A DNA stretch of 51,966 nucleotides from a virus (Duplodnaviria > Caudoviricetes): IMG/VR virus record IMGVR_UViG_3300031746_000028, positions 1-51,966 of that record; one strand, 5' to 3'. The notes beneath the pieces are model-generated. The model did no database searches. It was not told the DNA's origin and saw only the letters and a program-made list of their open reading frames with translations. This document shows, one piece after another, positions 3,499-51,966 of the stretch (the stretch's first letter is position 1; each line of letters begins with the position of its first letter). The translations under genes were made by a program, and so were the position numbers.

Positions 3499-4038
3499 GT
3501 GGTAGCCGAAACGGTTCAGCATCAGCAGACCGCCGAGTACGTGACGCGGACGGGTTGGCGCCTGTCAGACGACATTGCCAACCAGGTCGGTCAGTTTGCC
3601 GACAAGCTCGCTGCTCGGATTGGCCGACGGCCGGAGCCGTCGGAGTTGGTGACCGCAGCGAAGTCTGTGAGGTCACCAATCCACGACCTATTCGAGTGGG
3701 ACGATGCAAAGGCGGGGCACGCATTCCGGCTCTCCAGGGCGAAGCAACTGCTCGCCTCGTATCGGCTGAAAGGGAGCGACATTCCGTTCAACATGGTGCT
3801 CGATCCGTTGCCCTCTGAGACTTGGGGGGAGGATGGCAACAGCATCCGAAGGGTCACGCTGACGCAGGTCTTCTCCGATGACGAACTTGCACATCGGGCT
3901 AAGCTGACGGTCTTCCGGCGGGTCTACTTCTACCGATCCCAACTGGTCGAGTTTGCCGACGGGGACCCGATGATTGACGCAGTGGTGAAGGCGCTGGACA
4001 GGTGCGAAGAGGCATTCGACAAGATGCGCACGGTCTGA
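3499..4038 (+). CDS. Conserved phage hypothetical protein (SPIHDLFEWDD...AFRLSRAKQLL motif)
   Basis: GAGGTGG RBS before GTG; motif recalled from other phage proteins; lower GC than flanks. Confidence 0.6.
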   Translation: MVAETVQHQQTAEYVTRTGWRLSDDIANQVGQFADKLAARIGRRPEPSELVTAAKSVRSPIHDLFEWDDAKAGHAFRLSRAKQLLASYRLKGSDIPFNMVLDPLPSETWGEDGNSIRRVTLTQVFSDDELAHRAKLTVFRRVYFYRSQLVEFADGDPMIDAVVKALDRCEEAFDKMRTV

Positions 4039-4054
4039 TCAGTAGGAGGGTGAC

Positions 4055-6031
4055 ATGCTCAAGACGCTCGCAGTCAGGAACGTGCGGGGGGTCGTCTCGG
4101 CGGACGTCGCGCTTAGTGAACAGGTGACGCTGATCGTCGGACAGATGGGCGCCGGGAAGACCAGCATCGCCGCGGGCGTTGAGTACGCCCTGACCGGCAA
4201 CTGCGCCTGGACGGCCGCCGACGGCAAGGGCTTCGCCGGCCTGCTGCGTAACGGCTCCGCCGGCGCCGCCATCGAGGTCGAGACGGAGTTCGGCTCCGTC
4301 CTGCGCACCATCAGCGCCAAGCAGGCCTCGCTGGCCGTCGGCGACCGCAGTGGAAAGGAGGCGCAGGCGGTGCTGGACGCGGCCCTGCCGGCGCGCGACA
4401 TCCTGGCCGCCATGCTCCGCTCCGATGGTCTCACCGGCCTGCCGGCGAAGGGCCAGCAGGACCTGCTCTTTCAACTCGCCGGCGGTGAGGTCAACGGGCA
4501 ATGGTTCGCCGAGCGCCTAACGGCCGACGAGGCCGCGGCGGTCGAGATCCAGCTCTCCACCCGCCTGCGGGGCAGCGCCCTGGCCGACCACCTCTACGAT
4601 GCCGCCTATGCCATGCGCACCGAGGCCAACCGGACACTGAAGACGGCGCAGGCGCAACTGCAGGCAGCCAACGACGCCGGGTCTCCTGCCCACGGCAACT
4701 CCACCCGGATCGGCAACGACCTCAACGCCGCCCGGACGGAGTTGGCCACCGTCACCGAGCGCCTGGGCGGAGCCCGCGCCACCATCGCCGCGCACGAACG
4801 CGCGACCCAGCGGGTCAACGCGACCGAGGCGACGCTGGGCGAGCGCCGCAAGCAGGTCGAGACCCTGGGCGAGCAGCCCGAGGTCATGGGCCGCGAGGAG
4901 TTGCTGGCGCTGTTGGATGAACTGGCGACCAAAGAGGAAGCAACGGCCAGCCACAAGGAGCAGCACGACCAGGCGCGCGCCGAGCGGGACGCCCTCTGTA
5001 AGCAGGTGGCCAGCTTCAAGGCCCTGTCGGGCTGCGTCCTGTCCGGCGTTGACTGTCCCCTGAGCAGCGCCGATCGGGAGAAGGCCGTCGCCGCTGCGGA
5101 CAAGCAGGTGAAGCGGCTCACCGAGCAGATGGCCGCGGCGGAAACCGAACGGGAGCAGACTGACACTGAGGCCGACGCCCTGCGGGTGCGATGTCAGGCA
5201 GTGGGTGACGCCCAGGTGAAGTTCGAGCACTGGCAGGAGCGGCAGACGCTGCTGACGGCCAGCGTGGCCGACGCCGAGCAGGCCGCCGCCGCGGCGCTGG
5301 TTGACTACCAGGACTGCGGCACCGTCTCCCTGGCCGACCTGGAGCACAAGTCTGAGACGGTCAAGGGCCGGATCACGTCGATGGAACTGGACCTGCGGAC
5401 GGCCCAGGGCGCGGAGCAGGCGGCCGGTCGGCGGGCCGCACTGGAGAGTGACGTGGCTGCGGCCACGCAGCGCGCCGACCTGCTCGACTCCCTGGTGAAG
5501 AAGCTCAGCCCCGACGGGCTCCCCGCCCAGGCCATGCGCGAAACGGTCGGCGCCGTCCTCGCCGGCATCAACGAGGTACTCGCCGAGGTCTCCGAGTTCG
5601 TCCTCCATGCCGAGCCGGGCAAGGAGTTCAGCCTCCTGGTGGACACGCCGAAAGGCCGGGTGCTGGTGGCCGGGCTCAGCGAGGGCGAGACGCTGCTCTT
5701 CGGCGCCGCTGTCCAGGTGGCCCTGGCGAGGCTAACAGGCTTCGGCTTCATCATCGTGGACCGCACCAACGTGCTCGACGGCGAGCACCGCCGGGCCCTG
5801 GTGGGGATGCTGCTGGACAGCGGCGTCCAGGCCCTCGTGCTGGCGACGCCGAGCAACGGGAGTCGGCCGGTGGCGGAGGGGCTGAGCGTGTACGAGCTGG
5901 TGGATGGGAAGGCGGTCGCGGTGGGCGAGGAGGCGGAGGGCGATGCAGATACTGGACAGGGTCACCGGCAGAGTAATCTGGGAGGGGCTGCGCGGGACGA
6001 GGAGGCGAGGCATGATGGCAACGCTGACTGA
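4055..6031 (+). CDS. Rad50/SbcC-like SMC ATPase
   Basis: Walker A GQMGAGKTS, long coiled coil with central Cys pair (CVLSGVDCP), signature LSEGE, Walker B FIIVD. Confidence 0.85.
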   Translation: MLKTLAVRNVRGVVSADVALSEQVTLIVGQMGAGKTSIAAGVEYALTGNCAWTAADGKGFAGLLRNGSAGAAIEVETEFGSVLRTISAKQASLAVGDRSGKEAQAVLDAALPARDILAAMLRSDGLTGLPAKGQQDLLFQLAGGEVNGQWFAERLTADEAAAVEIQLSTRLRGSALADHLYDAAYAMRTEANRTLKTAQAQLQAANDAGSPAHGNSTRIGNDLNAARTELATVTERLGGARATIAAHERATQRVNATEATLGERRKQVETLGEQPEVMGREELLALLDELATKEEATASHKEQHDQARAERDALCKQVASFKALSGCVLSGVDCPLSSADREKAVAAADKQVKRLTEQMAAAETEREQTDTEADALRVRCQAVGDAQVKFEHWQERQTLLTASVADAEQAAAAALVDYQDCGTVSLADLEHKSETVKGRITSMELDLRTAQGAEQAAGRRAALESDVAAATQRADLLDSLVKKLSPDGLPAQAMRETVGAVLAGINEVLAEVSEFVLHAEPGKEFSLLVDTPKGRVLVAGLSEGETLLFGAAVQVALARLTGFGFIIVDRTNVLDGEHRRALVGMLLDSGVQALVLATPSNGSRPVAEGLSVYELVDGKAVAVGEEAEGDADTGQGHRQSNLGGAARDEEARHDGNAD

Positions 6032-10474: not shown

Positions 10475-11046
10475 GCACCAACACCGGACGGTTCAAGCCT
10501 GGGCAGCACTGGCGCAAGCCGAGGGAGCACTGGCAGCGTGACTGGCTGGAGCATGAGTATGTCGTAAAGGGCCGCAGCGCGGCGGAGATCGCGGACCAGC
10601 AGGGTATCACTGAGAACGCGATCTTCTACTGGCTGGACAAGCTCGGTATCCCGAGACGCACTATCTCTGAGGCCCGGCAGGTGAAGTCGTGGGGACTATC
10701 CGGCTCGGACAACGGGATGCACGGCAAGCGCGGTGCGGTGTGCCCGAACTGGCGCGGGGGCATCACTCCAGCCCGGCAGTCCTGCTACTCACATACTGAC
10801 TGGGCAACCCTGATCGAAGTGGTCTGGTCCAGGGACGGGGGGCGCTGCCAGCGGTGCCGGTGTACTGCCGCCAGCCGACGCCGGATGCACATTCACCATC
10901 TGATACCCTTCGAGCAGTGTTCAGACGCCCAGCGGATAGACGCCGAAGTCTGCCTGCTACTGTGCTCCAAGTGCCACGGGTGGGTTCACAGCAAGCAGAA
11001 CGCCGGCCGGGACTTCTTCATGGAGGGAGGTGCCACCGATGTTTGA
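10471..11046 (+). CDS. HNH homing endonuclease with N-terminal HTH
   Basis: RSAAEIAD HTH, PNWRGG, RDGGRCQRC...HIHHLIPF...LLCSKCHGWVH. Confidence 0.88.
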   Translation: MSTNTGRFKPGQHWRKPREHWQRDWLEHEYVVKGRSAAEIADQQGITENAIFYWLDKLGIPRRTISEARQVKSWGLSGSDNGMHGKRGAVCPNWRGGITPARQSCYSHTDWATLIEVVWSRDGGRCQRCRCTAASRRRMHIHHLIPFEQCSDAQRIDAEVCLLLCSKCHGWVHSKQNAGRDFFMEGGATDV

Positions 11047-12855
11047 CCCTCTCGACGGAGCGAGGTTCAAGGTGATTGAGGCGGACTGTTTGACGGCGCT
11101 GCGCGAACTACCAGACGGTTGCGTGAACTGCGTCGTAACCAGCCCGCCTTACTGAAGTAGTGGGGATTGAGGGACTATGGCACCGGGACCTGGGAGGGCG
11201 GAGAAGAGGACTGTGACCACAAGCAGGAGACCCGCCACCAGGCACAGGGAAAGACGAGTTCCCGGCAGGGTCGCTCCAACGTGGAGGCGCAGCGATCAGA
11301 GAACTTCCGAGGCGCCTGCGGCAAGTGCGGGGCCGTCCGCGTTGACCAGCAGATGGGCCTGGAGCCGACGCTCGAAGCCTACGCGGCGGGCATGGTCGCG
11401 GTCTTCGAGGAAGTCAGGCGAGTGCTGAGGCCCGATGGGACCTGCTGGGTGAATCTCGGCGACAGTTACGCCTGCGCCGCGAACGGGCGGGCAGCGAAGA
11501 ACATCGTGAACGACGACCGCGCCTTCAGGGACAAGCCCTTCGCAACTGCCGTAGGTGGCCTCAAGCCGAAGGACCTGGTAGGGATGCCGTGGCGCGTCGC
11601 CCTCGCCCTCCAGGCCGCCGGCTGGTGGCTGCGCAGCGACATTGTGTGGGCAAAGCCGAACCCGATGCCGGAGAGCATCACCGACCGCCCGACGCGGAGC
11701 CACGAGTACCTGTTCCTGCTGACGAAGAGCGCGAGGTACTGGTACGACGCTGACGCGGTGCGGGAGCCTGCCGCGACCCAAGTGGTCAAGATGCCTGATG
11801 GTTGGGATACCGGGCAGGGTGGTCATGGATCCATGCATCGTGACGGGCGCGAGAAGGGCCAGCCGAATGCCACCGTGACCTCGGGCCGCAATCTGCGCTC
11901 AGTTTGGCAGATCGCGACCGCCCCCTTCCCTGACGCCCACTTCGCCACGTTCCCGCCGAAGCTCGTGGAGCCCTGCGTCCGCGCGGGCTGCCCTTCTGTC
12001 GTTTGCTCGAAGTGTGGTTCGCCCTTGACAATCGCCGTAGATGGTGTATACTCGTTGCATGGAAACCACAAAGCCCCCAAGCAGAATACCGTACAAGAGG
12101 AACTGCGACGTGTGCGGCCGGTACTACGAGGGCAGGGGGCAGATGGCCTGCAGCCTCAGGTGCTCGAATGTCCTGGCCGGGGCCAAGAGACGCAAGCCGG
12201 AGCAGCCGTGCGAACACTGTGGGAAGATGTTCAAGCAACGGAACCGCGCGAGGTTCTGCAGCCAGAGATGCTCGACGATGTACGCGATAGGACACGGCAC
12301 CCACAATGTCTTTGCATGGGCGGGGACGGAAAAGCACCCTCCGAACTACAAGGGCGGGAAGTCGGACGACAAGGGGTATGTGAGAATCTACGCTCCCAAT
12401 CACTACCCAGGCCAGAAGACCAACTACATCATGGAACACCGCCTTGTGATGGAGAAGACCCTCGGACGCCAGCTGACGAGGAAGGAGTTTGTCCACCATC
12501 GCAACGGGATCAAGAACGACAACCGGCCCGAGAATCTCGAACTGGTAGCCCGCAACCCCCACGCCGGAGAGGTGACGTGCCCCCATTGCCAGGGGACGTT
12601 CTTCCTCAGATGAGCCCCTGCTGTTCTGCGCCCACCGTCCCCGGCCTCGTGTTCGACCCCTTCTGCGGTTCGGGCACGACGTTGGCGGTGGCATTGGCTG
12701 AGGGGCGCCGGGCGCTGGGGTTTGAACTCAACCCCGAGTACGTGCAGATGGCTGAGCAGAGGGCGCGGAAGGCCGAGCGTGAGTACCAGCCCCCGCTGTT
12801 TGCGGGGCCACCCCATGAAGGCAGGTACCGCCATGAAGAAGAACCAGCCAGCTAA
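11039..12855 (+). CDS. Beta-class N4-C/N6-A DNA methyltransferase, interrupted by an 8-nt insert (11153-11160) and a nested HNH gene
   Basis: 11039-11152 IEADCLTALRELPDGCVNCVVTSPPY; from 11161 WGLRDYG...WVNLGDSY...KPKDLVGMPWRVA...HFATFPPKLV...DPFCGSGTT...GFELNPEY. Confidence 0.88.
12025..12052 (+). promoter_or_regulatory. Internal sigma70-like promoter for the nested leaderless HNH gene
   Basis: TTGACA-16 bp-TATACT; ATG lies 6 nt downstream at 12059. Confidence 0.7.
12059..12613 (+). CDS. HNH endonuclease (HNH_3-type) with Zn-finger repeats, nested in another frame of the methyltransferase
   Basis: CDVCG..ACSLRC, CEHCGK..FCSQRC, NYKGG, EHRLVMEKTLGRQL..EFVHHRNGIKNDNRPENLEL. Confidence 0.92.
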   Translation: METTKPPSRIPYKRNCDVCGRYYEGRGQMACSLRCSNVLAGAKRRKPEQPCEHCGKMFKQRNRARFCSQRCSTMYAIGHGTHNVFAWAGTEKHPPNYKGGKSDDKGYVRIYAPNHYPGQKTNYIMEHRLVMEKTLGRQLTRKEFVHHRNGIKNDNRPENLELVARNPHAGEVTCPHCQGTFFLR

Positions 12856-13258
12856 CACCACCGTCGAGGAGAAGGAGGACCAGCTACGCAAGCTCGGCTT
12901 CATCCACGTTCCGCCACACGCCCTACGGTCTGCCCACGGCCGACAGGGGAAGTACCTCTACGTCAGTGGTGCGCAGGGTGTGCCTAAGCGCCTATACTTC
13001 TCGCGTGAGTTGGCTCGCGAAGCCGGGCTGGAGGTAGGCTCCTATGTGGACGTCTTCCAGAGCGGGCACCAGTTGGCCATCGTCGCTGGATCCGGGGAAG
13101 TCGTCGTGACCAAGATAGGTACAAGTGTGACCCTGTCCTGCTCCCGGCTGCTGGAAGAACTTGGCCTCGCGGTCGGCGACCGGCTCACGGCCGCGGTCAA
13201 GGACGGCGTGATCTTCACGGTGGCGCGATCCGCAGCCGAGAAGGCGAGTGCCCGATGA
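12833..13258 (+). CDS. Hypothetical protein, AbrB-like swapped-hairpin repeats possible
   Basis: ELAREAGLEVGSYV and LLEELGLAVGDRL repeats. Confidence 0.5.
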   Translation: MKKNQPANTTVEEKEDQLRKLGFIHVPPHALRSAHGRQGKYLYVSGAQGVPKRLYFSRELAREAGLEVGSYVDVFQSGHQLAIVAGSGEVVVTKIGTSVTLSCSRLLEELGLAVGDRLTAAVKDGVIFTVARSAAEKASAR

Positions 13259-13800
13259 CCACGCTCCTCCTGCTCACCACACTGACCAGCCCGGGCACCG
13301 ACACCGCCGTCCACCAGGAGCGTGTCGCGAAGTGCCGGGCCATCTGGCAGGCGTCCGCTCCGTGGAGCTACTCACCGGAGTTGGCCGAGTTCTTCGTGAC
13401 CGAGCATGAGCGGCAATGCGTCGGGGATCAGTGGTGGTGGAGCCTCTGCAATGCGCGGTACGCCAGTGGCCTCAACCCACGCATGAGCTGTCGCGGCGGC
13501 GGCATGTGGTCGCGTGGGCTCATGGACTGCACACAGTTGAACCGACCGCGCAGTGCCTTCCGGGACCTGGGGACGGCGAACCTGTTCGACGCCCGGGTGA
13601 GCATCCGTAACCACTGCTTTGAGGCCGGAGACTATCACCGTTGGACTGGACGCGAGGGTTGGTCACTCCTGCGCATGGTTTTCCTGCCGCGCAGTCCAGA
13701 CGGTCGGCGGGCCAGGGCCGAGGTGCCGAAGTGGCGGCGAGTCGAACGGCAACACCAGCGGTACCTACAGAGCTGGTACCAGAAACGAGGAAGCCGATGA
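13255..13800 (+). CDS. Hypothetical protein, degenerate lytic-transglycosylase-like
   Basis: ASGLNPRMS...SRGLMD...NLFDARVSI resembles SLT ES.NP..GLMQ..LFDP but lacks the catalytic Glu. Confidence 0.4.
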   Translation: MTTLLLLTTLTSPGTDTAVHQERVAKCRAIWQASAPWSYSPELAEFFVTEHERQCVGDQWWWSLCNARYASGLNPRMSCRGGGMWSRGLMDCTQLNRPRSAFRDLGTANLFDARVSIRNHCFEAGDYHRWTGREGWSLLRMVFLPRSPDGRRARAEVPKWRRVERQHQRYLQSWYQKRGSR

Positions 13801-13828
13801 GCGCCACCGTGCAGTCAGTTCGCGAGGT

Positions 13829-14059
13829 GACCGCCCCGCCGTCGTCATCCCGGCCACGAAGGGGCGCGTCATGATGTTCCGGCCGCGCCTCGATCAGTGG
13901 GCAGTGAGCATGACTGTCTCCTGGGACCCGACGCGCTTGACGATGGACCAGTTGCGGACAGTGGTTGACGACTGCGGGCGGCGGGTGGGGATACTGGACT
14001 TCCGGCCCGAGCACAAGGTGCCATTCGGGCGCTTTGTCGTGACGCACTGGGAGGCTTAG
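13829..14059 (+). pseudogene. C-terminal part of a phage RAMP/Cas7-like protein (5'-truncated, or short version from ATG 13871)
   Basis: DRPAVVIPATKGRVMMFRPRLDQW...CGRRVGILDFRPEHKVPFGRFVV: G-rich loop and terminal FGRF strand. Confidence 0.6.
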
Positions 14060-14060
14060 A

Positions 14061-14145
14061 GGCTGGGCTGGGCTCGGCCTGGCCAGGCCGGGCACGGCGA
14101 GGCAAGGCGGGGCGAGGCGAGGCAAAGCAGGGCGACGCACCGCTC
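14061..14145 (+). repeat. Phased GGC-NN pentanucleotide array (candidate guide ncRNA)
   Basis: ggctg ggctg ggctc ggcct ggcca ggccg ggcac ggcga ggcaa ggcgg ggcga ggcga ggcaa agcag ggcga (cgcac cgctc). Confidence 0.85.
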
Positions 14146-14179
14146 GCAGTCGCAGCACCATCCGCACCAGGAGGCCAGC

Positions 14180-14539
14180 ATGGACCAGGCGCCCCACGAG
14201 CGCACTCAAGTCTACATCGTCCACCAGGACGGGACTAGCTACCGCCTCCGCTCCCACGAGGTGCGCGATTTTGCGGTCTATTGTTCCCTTGCCGAACGCG
14301 ACCTCCTGCCACAGACCGACAAGGGTGGCGCCAGCGAGTATGTGAGCTCGGCGGATCGCGTGGCCTGCCTCAAAAGCCACGCTCTCCGGGGCACGGAATG
14401 CGCTTGGACGCGTCGGCAGGAGACGATGGTGCTGGAGGAGTGGGAGGCGGACTGGGTGCGGCAGTTGCGGTCGGATCGGGAGCGGGCCTTCGCCCTCCTC
14501 CGTGAACTGGGCCTTGACAAGCCCCGCGCACCGGGTTAG
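14180..14539 (+). CDS. Hypothetical protein
   Basis: AGGAGG RBS, 119-aa ORF. Confidence 0.65.
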   Translation: MDQAPHERTQVYIVHQDGTSYRLRSHEVRDFAVYCSLAERDLLPQTDKGGASEYVSSADRVACLKSHALRGTECAWTRRQETMVLEEWEADWVRQLRSDRERAFALLRELGLDKPRAPG

Positions 14540-14542
14540 TAT
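14514..14542 (+). promoter_or_regulatory. Putative promoter upstream of the ParB/methyltransferase/terminase block
   Basis: TTGACA-17 bp-TAGTAT. Confidence 0.5.
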
Positions 14543-14579
14543 CTGGACCAATACGAAACACAGCGTCGTGTTTGCACAC

Positions 14580-14616
14580 CGGCCGTCCTGACACCAGGGC
14601 GGCCGTTTCCCTTTCC
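14580..14616 (+). terminator. Terminator-like hairpin
   Basis: cggccgtcctg-acac-cagggcggccg followed by tttccctttcc. Confidence 0.5.
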
Positions 14617-14626
14617 GGGGCCGGGC

Positions 14627-14839
14627 ATGTCTGCTCACGCAGCAGCACCTACCGCCGTCTCTCACACCCACTCTGCCATCACTGGCCACAACCGTCGCCG
14701 CCCCGGGCCCCGCCCGGCCCCGGAGCTACACCCGCTGATCGTGCTGGGCATGAGCCCCCGGCAACGGATCGAAGCGGCCTGCGCCGGCATGACATTCGCT
14801 GCCTGGGCAAGGCTCATGCGGGAGAGGCCGGGGCGGTGA
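14627..14839 (+). CDS. Possible small hypothetical protein
   Basis: 70-aa ORF coupled (GTGA) to the ParB-like gene; weak RBS. Confidence 0.35.
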   Translation: MSAHAAAPTAVSHTHSAITGHNRRRPGPRPAPELHPLIVLGMSPRQRIEAACAGMTFAAWARLMRERPGR

Positions 14840-15459
14840 GGAAGACGCCAGTGGCGAAGAAGACGGCGGAGCAACCGGCACCGGCACCGGCGCTGACGCT
14901 GGACAAGCTCTTCCCGGTCCAGTGGTACAACCTCACCGACCTGAAGGGCCATCCCGACAACCCGCGCCAGCATAGCGACGAGAACGTGGCCGAACTCCAG
15001 GCCAGCCTGGACGAAGACGACTGGCTGCAGAACGTGGTGGTCTCTTCGGACGGGTTCCTGCTCGGCGGGCATGGCATCTGTATGGCGGCGACGAAGCTCG
15101 GGATGACACGGGTGCCGGGGCGCGCCTACCCGCTGCCCCATGACCACCCGAAGAGCCTCAAGGTCATGGTCAAGCTGAACACGCTGGGGATGCCCCGCAA
15201 GGACGATCCGACCACGCCGCAGGACGACCAGGATATTCTCACGGGGCTACTGCGGAGCATCGCGGCGGAGAGTGAGCGCGGCTTGCAGGGGACCGGCATC
15301 ACCGAGGCGGCGCTTGAGGACATGCTCGCGGAGTTGGCGGCGCAGCATCCGCCCACGGGGTTCGTGCCTCCCGAGTTCCGCGAGTACGACGAGAATATTG
15401 ACCTGAGTAACGTCAAGCGGGCGACCTGCCCTGAGTGTGGCCATGAGTTTCCAGTGTGA
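14836..15459 (+). CDS. ParB/Srx N-terminal-domain protein with C-terminal CPECG knuckle
   Basis: LKGHPDNPRQHSDENVAELQASL...FLLGGHG; typical partner of phage methyltransferases. Confidence 0.85.
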   Translation: MRKTPVAKKTAEQPAPAPALTLDKLFPVQWYNLTDLKGHPDNPRQHSDENVAELQASLDEDDWLQNVVVSSDGFLLGGHGICMAATKLGMTRVPGRAYPLPHDHPKSLKVMVKLNTLGMPRKDDPTTPQDDQDILTGLLRSIAAESERGLQGTGITEAALEDMLAELAAQHPPTGFVPPEFREYDENIDLSNVKRATCPECGHEFPV

Positions 15460-47820: not shown

Positions 47821-48204
47821 ATGGGCGAGAAGCGCCACGTCCTCGCCCGCCTGGCCTACTGGCAACACCGCCTCGGCATCCAGCCCTGGCGCGTGACCGT
47901 CAACGCTGTCGCGGGCCCGCACATCCGCCAGAGTGACGAGGAGACCACGCTCTGCCGGATCGAGCGCAATCCCGATGACCTGTCGGCGGTGCTGCACGTC
48001 GCCCTGGGCCGGGCGCCCGACGAACTGGACAATGACATCTGCCACGAGTGCCTGCACTTGCTGCTGGGGGAGACCAACACCCTGGTGCAGATGCTCGCCG
48101 GGAGGCTGGGTGGCGAGGCCCGGATGCTGGCGCAGGACCAGTGGCGCAATGTGGAGGAGCGCCTGGTCTCGATGCTGCAACGGGCACTGACGCCTGACGC
48201 CTGA
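47821..48204 (+). CDS. Zn-metallopeptidase-like protein
   Basis: YWQHRLGIQPW...ICHECLHLLL (HExxH). Confidence 0.7.
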   Translation: MGEKRHVLARLAYWQHRLGIQPWRVTVNAVAGPHIRQSDEETTLCRIERNPDDLSAVLHVALGRAPDELDNDICHECLHLLLGETNTLVQMLAGRLGGEARMLAQDQWRNVEERLVSMLQRALTPDA

Positions 48205-48240
48205 CGCCTGACGCCTGACACCTGACGTCTGACGCCTGAT
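48187..48240. repeat. Heptamer tandem repeat (CTGACGC)x7 plus partial
   Basis: ctgacgc x4, ctgacac, ctgacgt, ctgacgc, ctgat. Confidence 0.9.
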
Positions 48241-51290: not shown

Positions 51291-51966
51291 ATGTGTCAGT
51301 TCCTGTCATTCGTGACCAGATGGAAAGAGGGTAATGGTCTGCAGGTGTACGCGGCCCCGTCGCTGAGAGGGCATGGTGAGGCAGTGTCCACCTGGGGTCT
51401 ACAGAAACACGATGTGTTCAAGTTCGCGTGGGAAACGGAGGGTGAAGACAATCTGGTCCTCTCCCATGAGCAGACACCGACGCCCGACGCCGAGCGGGTA
51501 CGATTGGAGGTCCTGCGTCTCTGGCCGCAGCGGTCGGACCTTGTGATGTACCTGATTGGCAAGCTGTTGGATGCCGGGAAATTAGGAGGAGACCTGAACC
51601 TCCATGGCTGCGTGGGTCTGACCGCCCTTCCCGAGGGCCTGACGGTCGGAGGCTCCCTGTGCCTCCATGGCTGCGTGGGTCTGACCGCCCTTCCCGAGGG
51701 CCTGACGGTCGGAGGAGACCTGTGCCTCGATGGCTGCGTGGGTCTGACCGCCCTTCCCGAGGGCCTGACGGTCGGAGGAGACCTGTTCCTCTATGGCTGC
51801 GTGGGTCTGACCGCCCTTCCCGAGGGCCTGACGGTCGGATGCTACCTGTGCCTCGATGGCTGCGTGGGTCTGACCGCCCTTCCCGAGGACCTGACGGTCG
51901 GAGGCTCCCTGAACCTCCATGGCTGCGTGGGTCTGACCGCCCATTCCCGAGGGCCTGACGGTCGGA
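51291..51966 (+). CDS. Leucine-rich-repeat protein (MCQFLS N-terminal domain plus 21-aa LRRs); continues at position 187 after closure
   Basis: GGAGG RBS; open frame into GGxLxLxGCVGLTALPEGLTV repeats. Confidence 0.85.
   Translation, partial: MCQFLSFVTRWKEGNGLQVYAAPSLRGHGEAVSTWGLQKHDVFKFAWETEGEDNLVLSHEQTPTPDAERVRLEVLRLWPQRSDLVMYLIGKLLDAGKLGGDLNLHGCVGLTALPEGLTVGGSLCLHGCVGLTALPEGLTVGGDLCLDGCVGLTALPEGLTVGGDLFLYGCVGLTALPEGLTVGCYLCLDGCVGLTALPEDLTVGGSLNLHGCVGLTAHSRGPDGR
51585..51966 (+). repeat. 63-bp tandem repeat array (6 units here, ~3 at 1-190)
   Basis: Framework ggctgcgtgggtctgaccgcccttcccgag invariant apart from a 1-nt insertion in the last unit; period 63. Confidence 0.95.

Follow-up and report, generated by a model that had tools for sequence, protein, structure and literature searches.

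The window analysed here is the entire IMG/VR virus record IMGVR_UViG_3300031746_000028 (51,966 bases, estimated to be 95% complete), which represents a tailed phage of ~52 kb and 66% GC from sediment. On its forward strand lies the 3′ part of a gene, 76 codons and a TAG stop at positions 13829–14059, and one nucleotide (nt) behind that stop begins an array of 15 pentamers of the form GGC-NN (14061–14135), NN being a variable dinucleotide. Gene and array are almost certainly the remnant of a VIPR (Viral Interference Programmable Repeat) locus, of which a dead vipr gene and one solo guide RNA (vrRNA) are left.

VIPR has been described in three 2026 bioRxiv preprints (10.64898/2026.04.26.720920; 10.64898/2026.04.26.720927; 10.64898/2026.10.15.759431), mostly from Escherichia and Pseudomonas phages. 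As set out there, Vipr is a minimal RAMP protein that polymerises on vrRNAs of 9–16 GGY-NN units, with one protomer per unit (10.64898/2026.04.26.720920). The GGY of each unit is sequestered and the NN pairs with target DNA, skipping every third base of the target (10.64898/2026.04.26.720920). The published array caller accepts arrays of at least 4 units, 9–16 being typical, and seven VIPR types are distinguished on the basis of a tree and supplementary data (10.64898/2026.04.26.720920). An earlier note on this DNA, made from the sequence alone, had pointed to a resemblance to such systems; the systems are in print, and the comparisons below bear the suggestion out.

Identity of the truncated gene

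By sequence and by predicted fold, the open reading frame (ORF) upstream of the array is a Vipr homologue, belonging to the Cas7/Csm3-like RAMP family. A search with its C-terminal part retrieved 95 proteins, nearly all of them 171–181 residues long and 52–67% identical over the common part. A profile of these homologues aligns to the window (hmmsearch) with its positions 101–176, at 13829–14056, with an E-value of 8.7e-40. The remnant covers family positions 101–176 of about 177, and homology to the Vipr family begins exactly at 13829, the start proposed in the earlier note. Among the PHROG models, phrog_4652 is matched by the ORF at positions 132–190 of 194 only, and no model of Pfam, NCBIfam or PADLOC matches either the fragment or a full-length relative.

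In the Protein Data Bank (PDB), the 76 residues by themselves match chain 36pp_D, 'SUSP1 Vipr protein' (phmmer, E 1.8e-5, residues 131–187). The same chain is the single match of a profile built from 59 homologues (alignment A1), with an E-value of 2e-13 and profile positions 3–172 aligned to chain residues 2–188. An AlphaFold2 (AF2) model of a full-length homologue, P0008, has a predicted local distance difference test (pLDDT) score of 90.8 and a predicted template-modelling (pTM) score of 0.85. The best PDB matches that Foldseek returns for this model are Csm3/Cas7 subunits of type III and type VII complexes, with an E-value of 2e-7 and a template-modelling (TM) score of about 0.6. These predictions support the RAMP fold that had been suggested from the sequence.

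The remnant carries a strong coding signature, with a GC content of 0.88 at third codon positions (GC3) and 0.47 at second positions (GC2), and its 76 codons run without stop or frameshift. The first in-frame ATG, at 13871, opens a 62-residue ORF (13871–14059), as in the public gene calls, and overlaps the stop of a 25-codon ORF at 13797–13874. The product ends in ...GRFVVTHWEA, six residues beyond the ...GRFVV that had been read as its end.

The GGC-NN array

The TAG stop (14057–14059) is followed by a single A (14060) and by the repeat tract of the vrRNA at 14061–14135, on the same strand, with 15 in-phase units of the GGY-NN type. Fourteen units begin with GGC and one, unit 14 (14126–14130), with AGC. 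The dinucleotides of units 1–15 read TG TG TC CT CA CG AC GA AA GG GA GA AA AG GA, exactly as first listed, and comprise 10 different NN. Of the 12 matches that the window contains for a pattern of five GGCNN units, with at most one mismatch allowed, 11 fall inside the tract, and 100 dinucleotide-preserving shuffles gave a mean of 0.16 matches and a maximum of 2. The tract is therefore far above chance. Our own array caller found no other array of at least 5 units on either strand of the window, and the window holds no CRISPR repeat-spacer array.

As a period-5 repeat the tract receives only a low score of 30 from Tandem Repeats Finder, with 73% matches, which is what a fixed trinucleotide with a free dinucleotide would be expected to give and fits less well with a slippage repeat. 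Together with the diversity of the dinucleotides, this agrees with the original view that the tract is no slippage microsatellite. The last three units carry AA, AG and GA, which fits the A/G-rich 3′ end of the arrays in this clade. The array is separated from the following gene (14180–14539) by 44 nt (14136–14179, same strand), which may form a tail of the vrRNA; AGGAGG at 14169–14174 within this spacer is the ribosome-binding site of the following gene. No Rfam family matches at the array or the possible tail.

Arrays beside vipr in other viral loci

A scan with alignment A1 found 148 IMG/VR stretches that encode a relative of the protein, and the best 80 of these were taken as VIPR loci for comparison. 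Arrays were called in them as in-phase GGY pentamers with at least 6 good units, isolated bad units being allowed. In 79 of the 80 loci one or more GGY-NN arrays lie on the vipr strand, most of them flush with the gene on its upstream side, its downstream side or both, as the earlier note had anticipated for homologues of the gene; across all 80 loci only 1 array lies on the opposite strand. The sole locus without an array of at least 6 units within the flanks taken (L031, vipr at 4001–4510) may use an alternative repeat consensus of the kind named in a preprint (NNNGG and others).

As a control, we took 59 loci around relatives of the phage's large terminase subunit (TerL; 31–67% identity), 547,777 bases in all, and scanned both strands. 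None of the 59 contains an array and none contains vipr, so that they also offer neither gene nor array on which the deletion in the window could be mapped. Since the terminase relatives of this phage itself lack VIPR, the locus is a sporadic accessory. In 5 of the 80 VIPR loci, terminase genes lie 2–3 kb downstream of vipr.

The 80 loci hold 169 distinct arrays with 2,861 units. Positions 4 and 5 of the unit have an entropy of 1.90–1.96 of 2 bits, a result independent of the caller, which constrains GGY only; that the dinucleotides vary freely among relatives, as had been predicted, thus holds throughout this set. Positions 1 and 2 are G in 95–97% of units and position 3 is C or T, figures that are partly circular as the caller demands GGY. 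Within the nearer clade, AA, AG and GA are over-represented in the last units, and GGA or GGG often comes next. Clustering revealed no accessory gene common to the 80 loci; its largest clusters were spurious ORFs running through arrays.

Some of these loci hold very long arrays, or several of them, beside an intact vipr. Two (L030 and L070, 4647–5036) contain the same 78 in-phase units in one run each, a third (L042, 4502–5691) has thirteen successive arrays, and a fourth (L034, 4424–4748) has 65 units. They may correspond to the staggered or multi-vrRNA architectures of the discovery preprint.

The 5′ truncation

In the model of the full-length homologue P0008, residues 1–100 form strand β1, a helical bundle, helix-1 and a short strand; a thumb hairpin follows at residues 99–121, then a strand, helix α2, the G-loop and the last strand. 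The remnant has kept the thumb hairpin, strand β3, helix α2, the G-loop and the last strand, and it lacks strand β1, the helical bundle and helix-1 (family positions 1–100). Mapped through the alignment, the retained part would include the equivalents of thumb residue R138 and of the G-loop D177-W178-R179 of the SUSP1 protein (here D-F-R), and the lost part would include those of H17, K33, R39, E71/M72 and K82/K88. According to the published structures, the parts lost here hold the pyrimidine, the skipped target base and the non-target strand (10.64898/2026.04.26.720927), and a histidine in strand β1 reads G1 of the unit (10.64898/2026.04.26.720927). With β1, the bundle and helix-1 lost, the remnant cannot be a working Vipr.

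The missing part is not elsewhere in the record. Scans with the homologue profile and phrog_4652 gave no significant match to family positions 1–100 in the six frames of the whole record, which establishes the 5′ truncation suspected in the earlier note. The same scans found no second vipr, divergent copies included, in the ~95%-complete record; a single truncated copy is all that it holds.

The junction zone, from the upstream stop to the first Vipr-homologous residue, is short (13801–13828, forward strand), and upstream of it there is no Vipr homology in any frame. The vipr frame is open for a further 210 nt before the remnant (13619–13828), with a GC3 of 0.67 and no coding signature, compared with a GC3 of 0.80 in the overlapping frame of the gene at 13255–13800. 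An in-frame upstream extension of the remnant (a 146-residue ORF from 13619) is ruled out by this lack of a coding signature. A frameshifted full-length vipr was also considered, for a segment at 13552–13653 (SAFRD..., in the frame of 13255–13800) faintly resembles family positions 40–74. This similarity is ruled out by its score of −3.3 bits (E 1.2), by a spacing that is ~31 codons off and by the completeness of the ORF in another family. The gene at 13255–13800 is a complete gene of that other family and not a diverged vipr N-terminus.

The junction was bridged by Logan contigs in two (X2 and X6) of the four other sediment runs examined. The X2 contig spans 13199–14700 with 3 differences and the X6 contig spans 13626–14139 with 2 differences, so the arrangement is not an accident of assembly. 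This bears on the explanation that the locus is an artefact or is not VIPR at all, that is, that a chimeric assembly or a sequencing frameshift created the truncation, or that the pentamers are a slippage microsatellite or an unrelated G-rich element. The window is indeed a metagenome-assembled record, and the SAFRD... segment could be taken as a trace of the N-terminus; however, that segment lies inside a full-length member of another family, the junction recurs in independent contigs, arrays accompany vipr in 79 of 80 loci against 0 of 59 controls, and the diversity of the dinucleotides excludes homogenisation by slippage. We regard this explanation as extremely improbable.

Population variation and other broken copies

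All 12 listed runs with the stretch are sediment metagenomes of 2019–2020 and may stem from one campaign. Contigs of the same phage from X2 and X6 have G at position 14126, which makes all 15 units GGC, and no NN letter in them differs from the window. In X4, X6 and X8, parts of the stretch lack contig cover, from which no inference is drawn. In X2, X4, X6 and X8, contigs from other organisms pile up on 14059–14180 at a likeness of at least 85%. The summed depth on the tract reaches 316 in X2 and 236 in X8, against at most 13 beside it, and the pile-up includes a 2,585-bp contig with a depth of 204. One loose contig end resembles the 3′ end of vipr running into an array. GGC-NN arrays of other VIPR loci thus appear to be common in these sediment samples, and with such arrays and a vipr-like end in the same runs, possible donors of Vipr share the habitat.

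Close copies of the stub are also found in public gene calls. One protein (P0096), whose longest contig measures 51,966 bp, is 100% identical to the 62-residue ORF of the window. A 62-residue variant (P0099), encoded by a 1,245-bp contig, differs from it at three positions (R22L, I41V and V50G). A third protein (P0100; 163 residues, encoded by a contig of 1,230 bp) shares 96% identity with the window from its residue 91 onward, which corresponds to 13838. Its first 90 residues form a HAAS domain (PF22564, E 3.4e-7) without counterpart in the window, and its stub begins within two codons of the break in the window, joined in frame to that domain. P0100 may represent a second genomic context for the stub, or else a chimeric contig or a read-through call; it has no close relatives in the viral_contigs collection.

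Broken vipr genes recur in public data. Altogether 22 short proteins match the family profile, many of them possibly cut at contig ends, and the shortened calls include N- or C-terminal halves on contigs of 4–13 kb. One (P0159) has an internal deletion that joins residue ~76 to the G-loop, two (P0166 and P0098) are C-terminal vipr stubs behind unrelated residues, and three (P0148, P0149 and P0154) are half-genes on contigs of 10–13 kb. Two others (P0160 and P0161) start at the methionine equivalent to ATG 13871.

Genome context

PHROG annotation of 48 ORFs places the locus between the replication and packaging modules. It gives, in this order, a replication module (exonuclease, SbcC-like protein, helicase and O-like initiator), followed by HNH endonucleases and DNA methyltransferases and by an ORF with a weak match to SpoVT/AbrB. 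Then come a lysozyme-like gene, the vipr stub, the array, a 119-residue ORF, a ParB-like protein, a cytosine methyltransferase, the small and large terminase subunits, and the portal, head and tail genes. No integrase was found among the ORFs tested in the record. The genes around the stub are all rightward, so that co-transcription of the array with the upstream genes is the simplest assumption.

The gene that abuts the truncation (13255–13800, forward strand, GC3 0.80) encodes 181 residues, is intact and is not part of VIPR. Its product aligns with 46 cluster representatives over residues 2–179, and its AF2 model (pLDDT 95) bears a weak likeness to lytic transglycosylases and lysozymes, the top fold match being MltF (E 0.017, TM score 0.41). 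No Pfam or PHROG model covers this uncharacterised phage family. Downstream of the array, a hypothetical gene of 119 residues (14180–14539, forward strand) is no recognisable vap accessory gene; it belongs to no Pfam, PHROG, PADLOC or NCBIfam family, and no homologue of it occurs in the 80 VIPR loci or in viral_contigs. None of the four neighbours (12722–13258, 13255–13800, 14180–14539 and 14572–15459) has a homologue in the 80 VIPR loci, and the flanking genes have no close relatives in viral_contigs. A methyltransferase match at 14572–15459 is the sole PADLOC or NCBIfam result among the fragment, the full-length relative and the neighbours, and a protein-atlas look-up of two flanking ORFs returned only phage clusters without names.

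Several other features of the record were noted. A 63-bp tandem repeat unit, rotated, occurs at both record ends (8–200, 3.0 copies; 51585–51966, 6.0 copies), and an ORF at 51291–51965, open at its 3′ end, extends into the terminal repeat. The assembly probably broke inside one repeat array of at least 9 copies of this unit, across which the genome may be circular or carry a terminal redundancy. The DNA methyltransferase frame at 11030–12855 matches its family in two separate stretches (residues 69–276 and 493–538), and an HNH endonuclease gene lies between them in another frame (12041–12613; PF13392, E 9e-10; phrog_20891, E 2e-28); the motif-bearing N-terminus of the methyltransferase (11030–11155) is in yet another ORF. 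The arrangement looks like the insertion of a homing endonuclease or an intron-like element into the methyltransferase gene. A tandem repeat with a 7-bp unit (CTGACGC; 7.6 copies, 91% matches) lies at 48187–48239, in the end of the genome that is transcribed leftward.

Relation to known systems

The locus shares its main features with published VIPR systems. The protein family is the same, as the match of the profile to SUSP1 Vipr indicates; GGY is fixed and NN is free, and the 15 units fall within the published 9–16; the array is intergenic, beside vipr and on its strand; and the genome is that of a phage. It differs from them in that the gene is 5′-truncated, its product lacking the core of the RNA recognition motif (RRM), the bundle and helix-1, in that there is only one vrRNA and no recognisable vap gene among the four neighbours, and in that its Vipr clade is only distantly related to that of SUSP1. 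In the SUSP1 clade the vrRNA has an invariant, structured 3′ tail with a pseudoknot, according to the VIPR preprints; no such conserved tail was found here with a fold model that leaves out pseudoknots.

The closest published parallel is provided by 346 dereplicated VIPR-null phages of Enterobacteriaceae, described as keeping 1–2 solo vrRNAs after the loss of vipr-vap1 (10.64898/2026.10.15.759431). These solo vrRNAs must borrow Vipr from a co-infecting phage (10.64898/2026.10.15.759431). The window resembles them in that it has no working vipr and has kept a vrRNA at the former locus. The published cases, however, are SUSP1-like phages of Enterobacteriaceae that lost vipr-vap1 in a clean deletion, share breakpoints and have predicted targets, whereas the present phage is a high-GC (66%) sediment phage with a Vipr of another clade and no predicted target, and its deletion is partial, leaving 228 nt of vipr. 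No word starting with 'truncat' or 'pseudogen' was found in the main texts of the discovery and competition preprints; 'remnant' is absent from the text of the competition preprint, and its one 'partial' refers to excluded records.

With Cas7 and Csm3 of class 1 CRISPR-Cas systems, the full-length family shares a predicted fold of RRM, thumb and G-loop and the principle of one protomer per fixed step of RNA. In contrast to those systems, the window has no CRISPR array, no other cas genes and no PADLOC hit at the vipr remnant, and the VIPR period is 5 nt with 3 sequestered bases, where Cas7 has 6 nt and flips one base. The preprints already cover the system, its code and the phenomenon of solo vrRNAs. 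What appears to be new is the combination of a partial vipr deletion and an orphan guide in an uncultured, high-GC sediment phage whose Vipr clade is distant from SUSP1.

A guide in trans or a relic

The orphan guide can work only with Vipr borrowed from another virus, or not at all; decay and service in trans are also the two alternatives that the earlier note had named. Use in trans, as a solo vrRNA, is the reading that we favour, at about an even chance. What the analysis shows is the identity of gene and array, the truncation, its occurrence in other samples and the lack of a Vipr of the phage's own; from there we infer transcription, loading in trans and targeting as follows. The solo vrRNA would be transcribed with the rightward early genes, and a Vipr of the same clade, supplied by a co-infecting or resident VIPR-positive element, would coat it with one protomer per pentamer. 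The borrowed filament would then be directed to a ~44-bp DNA site that reads NN-x-NN-x... under the rule of a 1-nt skip. The outcome would be a competitor silenced or diverted, as is described for borrowed Vipr in VIPR-null phages and satellites of Enterobacteriaceae (10.64898/2026.10.15.759431).

Use in trans is supported because solo vrRNAs that borrow Vipr are published for the 346 VIPR-null phages, because the array is canonical at all 15 units in other samples (14126 being G) and because other GGC-NN arrays, and hence possible donors, pile up in the same runs.

A number of results weigh against a guide in use, the search for its target among them. Under the target rule, the non-target strand reads NN-x-NN-x... 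in guide orientation with a 1-nt skip, which gives 30 NN letters to be matched. Within the window, the best site agrees at 18 of 30 letters, against a mean of 18.6 and a maximum of 21 for shuffled unit orders, and for a 12-unit pattern there is no site within 3 mismatches. The best site in the 80 VIPR loci has 22 of 30 letters (control maximum 23), and that in the 59 TerL loci has 20 (control mean 20.0); the gapped DNA target that had been postulated for the array thus did not rise above shuffled controls in any of these sets. The larger collections were scanned for exact patterns only, whereas the published criterion, at least 80% of the NN letters, allows up to six mismatches. Units 1–12 have 0 exact matches in viral_contigs, genome_contigs and metagenome_contigs; units 1–10 and 6–15 have 0 in viral_contigs, and units 3–12 have 0 in genome_contigs. 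That no target was found under the 1-nt-skip rule with exact-match scans is not evidence of its absence. Skip lengths of 0, 2 and 3 gave no match except the array itself at skip 3.

Two candidate targets were discarded. Units 3–12 match exactly one sequence family in metagenome_contigs, present in 3 contigs (L082–L084), over 20 of the 30 letters; none of the 10 remaining letters matches, and by a rough estimate ~1 chance hit is expected for 20 specified letters in so large a collection, so that the match looks like chance. Targeting of the phage's own locus, or of the vipr genes and arrays of relatives, scored at the level of the controls.

Further points against use of the guide come from the locus itself. 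The fold of 14040–14200 is not significantly structured compared with shuffles (z −0.40, pseudoknots being outside the model), and no sigma-70-like promoter or terminator-like site lies at the array, the nearest such sites being at 14514–14542 and 14580–14605. None of the 12 listed runs with the stretch is an RNA record. A useless gene stub is, moreover, the expected leftover of simple decay, and the window copy shows signs of drift. The nearly invariant residues R116, L136 and G164 (alignment A1 numbering) are M, R and V in it, and unit 14 has A in place of G1. Scored against a profile made from half of the homologues, the window ORF reaches 97.2 bits, below 44 of 45 held-out intact homologues (mean 108.5 bits, standard deviation 4.2); P0099 and P0100 reach 105.5 bits. 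Two of the three differences in P0099 restore the consensus at L136 and G164. The lineage of the window shows slight drift, on the strength of very few changes.

These observations speak for the possibility that the locus is a relic, in which a deletion or replacement took the 5′ 300 nt of vipr and anything upstream, so that stub and array are neutral leftovers, and any RNA made from the array would lack a partner and do nothing. The record has no intact vipr; in the window copy, three nearly invariant residues and G1 of unit 14 have changed, and two of those residues, like G1, are still of the consensus type in sister contigs; neither a target nor a conserved tail structure was found; and broken vipr genes recur, as the 22 short proteins attest (P0159, P0166, P0098, P0148, P0149 and P0154 among them). 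Yet the 76 codons have stayed free of stops and frameshifts at a GC3 of 0.88, sister populations carry a flawless array, the competition study (10.64898/2026.10.15.759431) establishes functional solo vrRNAs as one result of losing vipr, and the evidence of drift amounts to three amino-acid changes and one base. We hold the relic to be a serious possibility, if one somewhat short of an even chance.

The stub itself might also be under selection, either because the 3′ part of vipr carries promoter or 5′-processing signals of the vrRNA or because the 62-residue peptide hinders rival filaments or the loading of their vrRNA. The ORF is open from ATG 13871, the codons for T-K-G-R-V provide a ribosome-binding-like motif, AAGGGG, 6 nt before that ATG, the same stub (96% identical from residue 103) stands behind the HAAS domain on another contig, and P0160 and P0161 begin at the equivalent methionine. 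Half an RRM is, however, unlikely to fold alone; start and ribosome-binding-like motif follow from the conserved coding sequence with no need for selection; the 1,230-bp contig of P0100 may be chimeric or its protein a read-through call; the family profile gives the window copy a low score; and the stub contains no promoter-like site. Selection on the stub therefore seems distinctly improbable.

A bolder version, which we think unlikely, is that stub and vrRNA form a selected, portable 'guide-only' cassette that recombines between genomes as a block. The 228 nt may then be kept for signals needed to make the vrRNA, or for a 62-residue peptide of thumb and G-loop that poisons the Vipr filaments of rivals. 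The idea draws on the 96% identical stub that starts within two codons of the same point behind a HAAS-domain gene on another contig, and on the persistence of the stub in several sediment samples rich in other VIPR arrays. If true, the cassette would be a parasite of the RNA-guided machinery of other viruses, outside the enterobacterial phages for which solo vrRNAs have been described.

Implications for VIPR

The locus provides an independent environmental example of VIPR, from a 66%-GC sediment phage. Throughout a large uncultured clade, arrays follow the GGY-NN grammar and stay linked to vipr (79 of 80 loci, with 169 distinct arrays), and the loss of vipr with retention of the guide extends beyond the SUSP1 family, here by partial deletion. 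If the orphan guide is active, it would be a natural case of one virus exploiting the RNA-guided effector of another; if it is a relic, it documents how VIPR loci decay. Either way, it is one more data point and not a new principle, and it makes the locus a testable case of guide retention after the loss of the effector.

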